The notes beneath the pieces are model-generated. The model searched no databases, was not told the DNA's origin, and was given only the letters and a program-made list of their open reading frames with translations. The position numbers and the translations under genes were made by a program. DNA of 22,968 bases. It comes from a virus. The stretch lies in the UHGV virus genome UHGV-0310418; one strand, written 5' to 3'. Each line of letters begins with the position of its first letter. Within the stretch, counting starts at the first letter, position 1. This document shows positions 1-17,072 of the stretch, one piece after another.

Positions 1-30
1 GGTTTTCAGGAACATCGCTGACTCTCCGGA

Positions 31-11698: not shown

Positions 11699-11905
11699 CT
11701 TCATTTTCACTTTCTTAAATCTAACGACAGACGGCTAACATTTAAGTATTGTGAAATATTATCAAATGTAATCATCATTGATTTACAAAAGATACATTTT
11801 GCCCCGAAAGGATTCCTGTCAGAAACATCAAAAGATGATGTTCTATACTGAGAACCATGGCAACACGGGCATCTAAAGTGAATATGGTTTGTAATATTTT
11901 CTACC

Positions 11906-12121
11906 TCAAAGTGCCACTACATGAACAGCCGCGGGGCCTTTAGGTCCGTTCTCAATACCAAATTCGACTTGCTGATTCTCAGTTAACGTTTTGAAATCGT
12001 TGCTCTGAATAGCTGAGAAATGGACAAACACATCTTTGCTACCATCTTTCGGCGTGATGAAACCAAAACCTTTTTCAGGGTTAAACCATTTCACTAAACC
12101 AGTCATTTTGTTAGACATCAT
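11906..12121 (-). CDS. cspI: Cold shock protein, CspA family (CspI-like)
   Basis: [35 protein letters not shown] contains both RNP motifs (KGFGFI, VFVHF). Near-identical to E. coli Qin CspI as recalled. Start may be the second ATG (12118). Confidence 0.85.
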
Positions 12122-12486
12122 TATTACCTTTTGAAGAAGTTAGCCCTTGGGCAGAATGGTCCGAAAAAAATATCAGAGAGAAAAACCAACAAGGAAATCT
12201 CAAGAGGTACAAATAATAAAATTATAACAATGACTGCTTCAGATAATTTTGTAACAAACCAGAACACCATTAACGCATGATTAACCAACCATAGCAAGGA
12301 TTACTTTTGTAAAGAAAAACACACGAATGAAACAATAGCTTTATTTATTAATAAAACGTGTCATTCTGTCTAATGACCTTTTATCTTACCCTTAAGATTT
12401 CAAGGATTTTGACTCATGGAAGAGTCCTTTTTATTTAAATTTCACATTCAGCACTAAAAATAATCCGATTTAATGTTAATCTACAT

Positions 12487-14634: not shown

Positions 14635-14805
14635 ATGTCAGAACGTAAAGACTCAAAATCACGCCGTAATTATCTCGTTAAATGTTCCTGCCCAAACTGC
14701 ACCCAAGAGTCAGAACACAGTTTTTCAAGAGTACAAAAAGGTGCCCTTTTGATCTGCCCTCATTGCAACAAAGTATTCCAGACAAATCTTAAAGCTGTAG
14801 CTTGA
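14635..14805 (+). CDS. Small Cys4 zinc-ribbon protein, putative
   Basis: 56 aa from internal ATG with AGGAAAA Shine-Dalgarno; CxxC...19 aa...CxxC (CPNC, CPHC). Followed 60 nt downstream by a strong terminator. Track ORF 14584..14805 starts upstream. Confidence 0.55.
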   Translation: MSERKDSKSRRNYLVKCSCPNCTQESEHSFSRVQKGALLICPHCNKVFQTNLKAVA

Positions 14806-14887: not shown

Positions 14888-15168
14888 AATATTGTGGTAC
14901 TTTTTGTGGGAGTCATCCACTTACGCACTTTGTTTTGCTATGCCAGCAGTTAGCTTCTGCTGTAAAACTATTCATGCAGCAAACCTGCACTTCACCACAA
15001 TGGTTAGCATACTTTTCCTGATTAAGTTATTGCCAAATATGCTGGCCATTGTTTCATGTATTGGACCTCCTTACTATTTATTAAAGAGATCCAATATTCA
15101 CCACTCTGTCTGTATCTCCACTCAGGCATCAGCCTTCTTCGTTATCGTATACAGACAAACTATGAATT

Positions 15169-15384
15169 TTAATCAGTAATTATGACATTTGCTGCTGCAG
15201 GACCTTTAGCACCACTCTCTACAGAGAAGGTAACCTTTTGACCTTCAAATAAGGTTCGATAATTATCATTCTGAATCGCAGAAAAATGCACAAACACATC
15301 TTTACTACCATCAACAGGAGAAATAAAGCCAAAACCTTTATCAGCGTTAAACCATTTTACTAAACCAGTCATTTTATTTGACAT
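15169..15384 (-). CDS. cspB: Cold shock protein, CspA family (CspB-like)
   Basis: [66 protein letters not shown] with both RNP motifs; near-identical to E. coli CspB as recalled; AAGGAA Shine-Dalgarno. Confidence 0.85.
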
Positions 15385-15684
15385 TCTACATTCCTTAACT
15401 TGAGCCTTTCGGCATAAATGGCTTGTATAACAGAAACGACTTCGTACTTAATTGGAGAGACTCAAAGAAGGAATAAGTGAATAACACCTGAAATGAGAAC
15501 TGCTTTAGTAAACTACTTCGTATATCGTCTGTTCTTCAAACCGACGCAATCATTAACGCATAGTTGAACATATGAAGCAATGTTTATTTTAGACATCCAG
15601 CCATCTTCAACCCCATCAAAAAACTATAGCTTTCTTCAGGAACGTGTGTATAGTGCGCCAAGTTATCAGTATTAAGGAATTTTT

Positions 15685-15897
15685 TTGTCCCGTAAAATGA
15701 CAGGAATTCTCAAAACCTTTGACGGCAAAAGCGGCAAAGGTCTTATAACCCCATCCGATGGTCGTATCGATGTCCAGCTTCATGTTTCAGCGCTCAATCT
15801 CCGCGATGCAGAAGAAATTACCACCGGATTACGCGTGGAATTTTGCCGGATAAATGGTCTGCGTGGACCATCAGCTGCCAATGTTTACCTTTCATGA
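15685..15897 (+). CDS. cspF: Cold-shock-domain protein lacking canonical RNP motifs (CspF/CspH-like)
   Basis: [37 protein letters not shown]...[13 protein letters not shown], matching E. coli CspF as recalled. Apparent TTG start 6 nt after AAGGAA; an in-frame ATG lies 12 nt downstream. Confidence 0.8.
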
Positions 15898-15950
15898 GCT
15901 ATATTAAAGCTTTAACTTCAAGCCCCATCGAATCAAACATGGAGAGTTTT

Positions 15951-16040
15951 CATGAATAAACCCGTCTGTCTTGATGACTGGTTGATTGGCTTTAAAAGCT
16001 TATGCTGTACTTTGACCTTAATAGCTCTGCTAATAATGTA
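15951..16040 (+). CDS. Candidate small hydrophobic peptide (29 aa: [29 protein letters not shown])
   Basis: ATG preceded by GGAGAG with a 5-nt spacer; short polar N-terminus followed by a roughly 19-residue hydrophobic stretch. Below the ORF-track length cutoff; found by reading the sequence. Confidence 0.3.
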
Positions 16041-16180
16041 ATAAGCAGACTCATTGTATCTATGGACATTGTACTGGAAGAAAACATTTTAAACATCAGG
16101 CAAAAAACAAAGTCACCCGATAAATAATAAGTAAACTAACATGAATCCCGTAATGAGATTCAACATCTCTATTACCCTAT

Positions 16181-16210
16181 TTAAAGCACAAAAACCCGCT
16201 CATCAGCGGG
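16181..16210 (-). terminator. tR'-like intrinsic terminator (bidirectional) just downstream of the late promoter
   Basis: CCCGCT-catc-AGCGGG hairpin; on the minus strand it is followed by TTTTTGTGCTTT, on the plus strand by TTTTCTACTTTTTC. Confidence 0.75.
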
Positions 16211-16259
16211 TTTTCTACTTTTTCTTAACTTCGGGTATACAAAGCCCATCGTTGAAAAA

Positions 16260-16288
16260 ATTTTATCCATATTTTTTGAAAAATGCAA
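16260..16288 (-). promoter_or_regulatory. Late promoter (pR'-like): -35 TTGCAT, 17-bp spacer, -10 TAAAAT
   Basis: Minus strand reads TTGCAT-ttttcaaaaaatatgga-TAAAAT, beginning about 32 nt after the Q stop; predicted transcript start is roughly 45-65 nt upstream of the terminator at 16181..16210. Confidence 0.7.
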
Positions 16289-16319
16289 GCATCACGTCGC
16301 CATCTTCGGCGAAAATCAC

Positions 16320-17072
16320 TTATCTCGTCACCTTTCTCAATTGTGCTTCAGCGTAAGATTCCTCCTGCCAGCACTTTGTAACCAGTTTATCAATGACATT
16401 TGCATATCCTTTATACCACTGATAATCACTCAGGTCCGGTACCAGCTTCTGGACATGATGCCGCGCCAGTGTGGTTGGTAAACGACTAAACCGTTTTCCA
16501 TTGCAACGCCCACAAATCTTATAAACAGGTGTGCCATGAAGCCGGGTCCTTTTTTCATCCAGGACAATACCTTTACCCTTACACCCTCTGCACGCTGTGC
16601 TGACTTCTCCCTTACCATGGCAATGCTGACATAGTTCCTTCACCCACTCTTCTTTGATAACAGATTCCCCGCTTCTGGAGTGTTTCACCACTTCGCGCAA
16701 TACATTATGAAATCCAGTACCAGCACAATGCTCACAACGAGCCTTACTTGCCGCAGACCTGGAATAATCAGCAAAGGCAAAATTCACAAGGTAAGGAATA
16801 ATCTGTAGCCGGGTTTCTTCACTCAATTTATTCAATGTCGGGTTATCCAGTGCCATCGCGTAATTGAGCAGACCTTCAATCGCAAACTGAGGATCCTGAA
16901 CACCAACTTTTGCCAGGAATAAGGCAAACCCAAGCGGTGCTTTCGACTGCACCATCCCCTGCGCAGCCATCACATCCGTAATCGTTAAACCACCAGAGCC
17001 TGTCGCCGGTGCGTCATCACTCAATTTTGGAGATTTTGGGGAGTAATATTTTGGTAAGGCTTCAAGGTTCAT
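16320..17072 (-). CDS. Q: Late-gene antiterminator Q (QuuQ / Q82-like family)
   Basis: 250 aa with Cys/His zinc-binding motifs (CEHCAGTG, CQHCHGKG, CRGCKGKG, CGRCNG); lies immediately upstream of the late promoter and terminator; same length and neighbourhood as E. coli Qin QuuQ as recalled. Confidence 0.8.
   Translation of the reverse strand: MNLEALPKYYSPKSPKLSDDAPATGSGGLTITDVMAAQGMVQSKAPLGFALFLAKVGVQDPQFAIEGLLNYAMALDNPTLNKLSEETRLQIIPYLVNFAFADYSRSAASKARCEHCAGTGFHNVLREVVKHSRSGESVIKEEWVKELCQHCHGKGEVSTACRGCKGKGIVLDEKRTRLHGTPVYKICGRCNGKRFSRLPTTLARHHVQKLVPDLSDYQWYKGYANVIDKLVTKCWQEESYAEAQLRKVTR

Follow-up and report, generated by a model that had tools for sequence, protein, structure and literature searches.

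The prophage gene ynfS downstream of cspF: conservation, genomic context and possible role of a 29-residue peptide

Identity of the ORF

The 29-codon open reading frame (ORF) downstream of cspF in the virus genome UHGV-0310418 is, with high confidence, the prophage gene ynfS and a real translated gene. The stretch of DNA analysed here, called the window, is 22,968 nucleotides long. Comparison with related prophages showed that the reading frame, start codon, Shine-Dalgarno (SD) sequence and length of ynfS are under purifying selection across the prophages of E. coli, Shigella and Citrobacter. The gene is already known and is not new, and no evidence contradicting its identity was met. The features of the locus are listed in Table 1.

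Table 1. Features of the ynfS locus in the window
Feature	Position	Strand	Evidence
ynfS CDS (29 codons + TAA)	15952..16041	+	ORF list, Pfam PF23697
Shine-Dalgarno GGAGAG of ynfS	15941..15946	+	Sequence; TTTTC then ATG, 5 nt
cspF, 70-aa cold-shock-domain protein	15685..15897	+	PF00313 CSD, E = 8e-21
cspF-ynfS spacer, 54 nt	15898..15951	+	Terminator scan, alignment
3' untranslated region from ynfS to the terminator, E. coli-type specific	16042..16190	+	Alignment; no Rfam match
Bidirectional intrinsic terminator, stem AAAACCCGC/GCGGGTTTT	16191..16224	both	Terminator scan, sequence
Q antiterminator gene, ydfT/quuQ type, 250 aa	16320..17072	-	PF03589 Antiterm, E = 1.5e-53
Candidate late promoter pR', 3' of Q	16260..16288	-	By eye: TTGCAT, 17-nt spacer, TAAAAT
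cspB with cspA-type 5' leader, divergent from cspF	15106..15545	-	Rfam RF01766, 156.7 bits; CSD domain
YnfU, 56-aa zinc-ribbon protein	14635..14805	+	PF23499, E = 2.5e-31
Second cspA-type thermoregulator leader	11860..12275	-	RF01766, 113.7 bits; cspI-like gene 11906-12121

The initial annotation, made from the sequence alone, had placed the ORF at 15951-16040. The ORF exists, and both of these ends are one base too low: the ATG occupies 15952-15954, and the last base of the stop codon is 16041. The translation given there agrees with the ORF list, and the sequence bears out the GGAGAG at 5-nt spacing. The description of the ORF as unannotated does not hold. The peptide matched the Pfam family PF23697 (YnfS) with 70.1 bits (cut-off 27, E = 1.2e-19), and the match ran from end to end, with residues 1-29 aligned to all 29 positions of the model. 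A 100%-identical sequence in E. coli strain PAR, where the gene order is the same, bears the CDS WP_122632654.1, which RefSeq labels as a hypothetical protein. The orthologue in K-12 MG1655 is WP_120795389.1, located in the Qin prophage between cspF and ydfT (quuQ), and the entry name of the K-12 form is "Protein YnfS, YNFS_ECOLI".

The K-12 protein and the window peptide are both 29 aa long and agree at 25 of 29 residues (86%). The two genes also share the SD, a Qin-type prophage as their location, and the same slot, 54 nt after cspF and ahead of a terminator and the Q gene. The window allele differs from K-12 YnfS by four substitutions (N3K, A22T, V23L, and I29M). The exact window peptide was found in at least 999 contigs in public protein databases. 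Megablast of positions 15600-16320 against complete E. coli genomes gave a match in 1,996 of 5,426, with a query cover of at least 80% in 1,410. The plasmid collection yielded only 4 incidental records.

Two other gene names were ruled out for this ORF. According to the literature, ynfQ is a different small protein of Qin and a paralogue of YnaM, and ymcF adjoins cspG in the K-12 annotation. The YnfS peptide had no family match in NCBIfam or PHROGs, a search against the PADLOC-DB defence profiles returned nothing at E <= 10, and a sequence-profile search of the PDB gave no match. No lipoprotein signature ([LVI][ASTVI][GAS]C) was present in the peptide, where K-P-V precedes C6 and K-S-L precedes C18, and no signal peptide was seen ahead of either cysteine. 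In the protein collection, a 291-aa "octaprenyl-diphosphate synthase" (P0019) was clustered with the 29-aa YnfS, which looks like a clustering artefact.

Translation of ynfS in K-12

The initial annotation had proposed start-site ribosome profiling and epitope tagging as checks, and both have already been published for the K-12 orthologue. A chromosomal SPA tag on ynfS gave an immunoblot band in K-12 (VanOrsdel 2018, PMC6001520). The same study lists ynfS with the neighbours cspF/ydfT (> > <) at 1642122-1642211 with 29 aa, and reports a positive signal for it in ribosome profiling with tetracycline as well (PMC6001520). Strong start peaks of ynfS were observed in K-12 by Ribo-seq with both retapamulin and Onc112 (Weaver 2019, bioRxiv 10.1101/511675). 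This evidence belongs to the K-12 orthologue, and the window allele has the same SD and start codon.

The gene is one of the uncharacterised genes in the E. coli "y-ome", and a 2024 survey still counts it among the uncharacterised genes of Qin (PMC11551758). In the literature searched, we found no localisation, interaction or phenotype data for YnfS, and no report of growth arrest or membrane damage on its overexpression. In K-12 transcriptomes, cspF expression was raised in long-term stationary phase (PMC7406224) and by treatment with AZT (PMC11228462); ynfS is mentioned in neither.

Conservation and selection

The copies of ynfS came from three sources: a CspF-based scan with one genome per species, a degenerate DNA pattern of the peptide core run over the viral contigs of IMG/VR, and phage records. 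Copies cut by a contig end were left out. The remaining 132 complete copies from E. coli, Shigella and Citrobacter prophages represented 11 peptide variants and 15 nucleotide variants, and all of them had the ATG, the GGAGAG and exactly 29 codons. The core pattern demanded intact codons 9-18 and left the start, the stop position and the remaining frame free to vary, so that disruptions within the core would escape detection. With the core preselected in this way, the frame was intact in 132/132 copies from related prophages, where frame-disrupting substitutions had been named as a possible refutation. The GGAGAG was present in 6/6 upstream sequence variants, Citrobacter included, at a spacing of 5-6 nt.

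The Citrobacter proteins, such as MYPKIYLNDWLTGLKSSCCTLIATILLFI and MNQTVYLSDWLTGLKSLCSTIAMTILLFI, showed 45-59% protein identity. The dN/dS of ynfS was 0.23-0.26 (Nei-Gojobori, pairs with unsaturated dS), and that of cspF was 0.07-0.13. The window and K-12 alleles differ by 4 non-synonymous and 0 synonymous changes, and every substitution seen within E. coli is non-synonymous; these numbers are too small to interpret. The alignment of the variants showed eight invariant residues (M1, L7, W10, G13, K15, S16, T20, and L26) and five that are nearly invariant (D9, L11, C18, L21, and L27). The frame, SD and length kept in all copies, the dN/dS, and the tag and Ribo-seq results for the K-12 orthologue together confirm the proposal that this is a genuine translated small-protein gene.

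Only the ynfS frame was open in all variants. An antisense ORF of 34 aa (15992-16096, - strand) was rejected because stop codons break it up in the Citrobacter homologues. A 41-aa ORF (16002-16127, + strand) lies mostly past the ynfS stop codon, where the homology between E. coli and Citrobacter ends, and was set aside because this homology is gone over most of its length.

Five deposited phage records, which come from four named Escherichia phages, contain ynfS. In a tblastn search of phages, the alignment stopped at residues 1-16, since low-complexity filtering hides the tail, and the search was rerun without the filter. The gene is unannotated in Escherichia phage PhiR63_1 (L005, 2501-2587) and in phage 2H10 (L004). 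In PhiR63_1, the annotation instead shows a 41-codon ORF at 2551-2676 that overlaps ynfS, and the larger part of this ORF falls in DNA without conservation in the Citrobacter prophages.

Genomic context and the cspF-ynfS module

The placement of the ORF between cspF and a bidirectional terminator, as first described, was confirmed. The terminator scan showed a hairpin of 10 pairs at 16191-16214, followed by a T-run on the + strand. The - strand of the terminator reads GCGGGTTTTTGTGCTTT, with TTTTTGTGCTTT as its U-tract, so that U-tracts are present on both strands. From its position, this terminator would end the cspF-ynfS RNA and also serve as tR' for the convergent late-leader RNA. The antisense orientation towards the late leader also stands. 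The Q gene, annotated as the antitermination protein ydfT in matching E. coli genomes, is on the - strand; late transcription runs leftward on this strand, and cspF and ynfS are therefore antisense to the late transcript. The candidate pR' was missed by the promoter scan because its -35 hexamer matches at only 3/6 positions. A transcript from it would yield a leader RNA of about 68 nt that stops at the bidirectional terminator.

The gene cspF is annotated in matching E. coli genomes, and its product gave only a generic cold-shock-domain match in PADLOC (CSD_V, E = 7e-5). With cspB and the cspI-like gene, the prophage carries three cold-shock-domain genes. YnfU is another known small protein of Qin; its gene, too, opposes late transcription, and it is likewise conserved in the cassette of Citrobacter.

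The association of ynfS with cspF was nearly complete. In 124/126 copies, ynfS was preceded by a cspF of the same orientation, with 54-65 nt between the two genes, and a divergent cspB lay upstream in all 112 copies with enough upstream sequence. No terminator-like site was found by the terminator scan in the 54-nt spacer of the window, where the SD block is the sole part conserved across genera. Because ynfS nearly always follows cspF at this distance, the two genes look like one operon, and the close linkage together with the terminator-free spacer suggests a bicistronic transcript. Co-transcription of cspF and ynfS is thus probable on the grounds of spacing and linkage.

The DNA downstream of ynfS is more variable. 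The Q gene was of the 250-aa type in 88/117 copies and of a type of about 150 aa in 10/117; the latter type occupies this slot in Citrobacter prophages. E. coli and Citrobacter share nucleotide homology in the leader and coding sequence of cspF, in the SD and throughout ynfS as far as its stop codon. Past this codon, the 3' untranslated region, the terminator and the Q gene are unrelated between the two. The putative operon looks like an insertion antisense within the late leader. Lambdoid prophages are known to carry "morons", additional genes that occupy the interval from Q/pR' to the lysis cassette. The putative cspF-ynfS operon resembles these late-leader morons in being an autonomous unit between Q and the holin that is kept while the flanking Q type changes. 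It differs from them in that it opposes late transcription and consists of a non-canonical cold-shock-domain gene and a 29-codon ORF.

Deletions in decaying prophages point the same way, towards loss of the cspF-ynfS module as a unit. In E. ruysiae (L014, at 2203) and in E. coli ECGI0523 (L018, at 2190), a 258-bp deletion, equivalent to positions 3289-3546 of L001, has taken the whole of ynfS together with the final codons of cspF and the greater part of the 3' untranslated region. The cspF of E. ruysiae has an additional 1-nt frameshift. In C. meridianamericanus (L016, 904-1330), cspB and cspF have lost their promoters and 5' halves to a deletion, and two C-terminal fragments are left. The ynfS of this genome is intact and adjoins an integrase fragment; of all variants found, it has the tail with the lowest hydrophobicity (TTLSVI). 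The contig JAGZPX010000007.1 (L015, "MAG: Veillonella parvula") carries part of a Qin-like prophage of the E. coli type, in which the 258-bp deletion of E. ruysiae recurs; its Veillonella label is probably due to a binning contaminant in a metagenome-assembled genome. The chromosome also encodes a cspF paralogue, cspH, and no ynfS-like ORF follows it in K-12 or E. whittamii.

Architecture of the peptide

The peptide comprises three parts. The head (residues 1-9) is short and polar and contains D8 and D9, the centre is conserved and amphipathic (L-x-D-W-L-x-G-[FL]-K-S-x-C), and the tail consists of 13 uninterrupted hydrophobic residues (17-29) up to the C-terminus. The earlier description of a polar head is correct, but the tail was overstated as being of membrane-helix length. 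Any 19-residue window of the peptide must take in the invariant G13, K15 and S16. On an approximate insertion scale, the best 19-residue window (11-29) gave a borderline -0.3 kcal/mol in the window allele and -1.0 kcal/mol in K-12, and the Citrobacter variants gave +1.5 to +3.8 kcal/mol. With a hydrophobic run of 13 residues and a best window that scores between borderline and unfavourable, the latter above all in the Citrobacter variants, a full membrane span is not assured. It is plausible that YnfS is a small membrane protein or associates with the membrane.

The strongest selection acts on the centre; the tail is free to change provided that it remains hydrophobic. G13, S16 and T20 may share one helical face. 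AcrZ and MgtS of E. coli are small proteins that cross the inner membrane once and modulate larger proteins in it. Like YnfS, proteins of this type have fewer than 50 aa, one hydrophobic region of helix length, a strong SD and detectable expression from the native locus. YnfS differs in that its clean hydrophobic run is much shorter (13 aa), lies at the extreme C-terminus and is followed by no positive charges.

Alternative explanations

Short ORFs are plentiful here. The window contains 184 ATG ORFs of 25-60 aa, 10 of which have an SD core 5-10 nt upstream, and ynfS is the only one of these 10 with a hydrophobic 19-residue stretch. A single window is therefore weak evidence beyond chance, and the 58 ORFs of at least 20 aa within the surrounding 3 kb would suit a chance ORF in a non-coding 3' region. 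The conservation of ynfS across copies settles this question; the kept frame, SD and residues, the Pfam family and the published detection of the protein in K-12 effectively refute the chance reading. It is also conceivable that the act of translation matters and not the peptide. Ribosomes on ynfS would then shield the 3' region of cspF from Rho or RNases, or modulate collisions with late transcription. A short second cistron that follows another gene, precedes a bidirectional terminator, runs antisense to the late leader and has a strictly conserved SD would fit such a role. However, the dN/dS of about 0.24 shows that the amino-acid sequence itself is selected, 8 residues are invariant among variants that are about 50% diverged, and the length is fixed at 29 codons in 132/132 copies despite unrelated downstream DNA. 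We regard both forms of this explanation as very improbable.

The initial annotation had likened the peptide to type I toxins. YnfS would then depolarise the membrane; an antisense RNA or the fold of its mRNA would keep it silent, and stress or prophage loss would release it. It is indeed small with a hydrophobic C-terminal half, the Qin prophage encodes the type I toxin HokD elsewhere, and read-through of tR' would presumably give an RNA antisense to ynfS. With Hok/Gef, Ldr, TisB, Ibs and ShoB it shares the small size, the hydrophobic segment and the prophage-borne location. It differs from them in having no cognate antisense RNA, translationally locked mRNA or family match, and in its constitutive native translation. 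The search for an antitoxin gave nothing: Rfam was empty over the locus even at E <= 1, a scan of the - strand showed no promoter-like site inside or just downstream of the ORF, and the antisense 34-aa ORF is not conserved. Because E. coli and Citrobacter differ entirely past the ynfS stop codon, there is no conserved antitoxin gene in this DNA. The SD is not sequestered, since the local fold was no better than that of shuffled sequences (z = 0.24). The native locus is strongly translated, and K-12 cells remain viable while the tagged protein accumulates in them. The residues with the strongest conservation are polar or amphipathic and lie outside the hydrophobic tail, and Pfam assigns the peptide to YnfS alone and to no Hok or other toxin family. 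The missing antitoxin RNA, the unmasked SD and the native translation in K-12 leave the toxin-like suggestion unsupported, the hydrophobic run of 13 residues is borderline for a transmembrane helix, and we consider this reading unlikely.

Proposed mode of action

We propose that ynfS is the second cistron of a cspF-ynfS operon, separated from cspF by a 54-nt gap that has no terminator. The cspF promoter would give a cspF-ynfS transcript ending at the bidirectional terminator. The cassette ynfU-cspB-cspF-ynfS would form an accessory block, or moron, between Q/pR' and the lysis genes. Because its orientation runs against late transcription, cspF-ynfS may be active in the lysogen, and in the lytic phase read-through antiterminated by Q would work against it. 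YnfS may associate with the inner membrane via its C-terminal hydrophobic segment and act by binding a specific partner. Judged from the sequence features, we give such an inner-membrane-associated binder of a specific partner, as opposed to an agent of general membrane damage, even or slightly better chances. Partner binding is favoured because the invariant residues cluster in the amphipathic centre, while the tail needs only hydrophobicity.

An obligate functional unit of lambdoid prophages formed by cspF and ynfS together is a less likely prospect, to which we give a low probability. In one version, CspF would use its nucleic-acid-binding cold-shock domain as a sensor or regulator and be coupled to a membrane-acting 29-residue effector; if this were true, the lysogen would gain a phage exclusion or stress phenotype. 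In another version, YnfS would tether or modulate CspF at the membrane. Such a unit is compatible with the data because of the near-perfect linkage, the common module boundary and the joint loss of the two genes. Simple co-transcription of unrelated cargo fits the same three observations equally well.

Significance

The gene, its translation and its family are already recorded, with the tag and Ribo-seq studies on K-12 published in 2018-2019, and the discovery value of the ORF itself is little. The present analysis adds that ynfS is under purifying selection across genera, that the invariant residues of its product are central and amphipathic and not in the hydrophobic tail, and that the gene travels strictly with cspF as one module. 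The default view that a small hydrophobic prophage peptide is a toxin is disfavoured here because of this selection, the central invariant residues and the coupling to cspF. These features of YnfS point towards a specific partner and a functional link with CspF.
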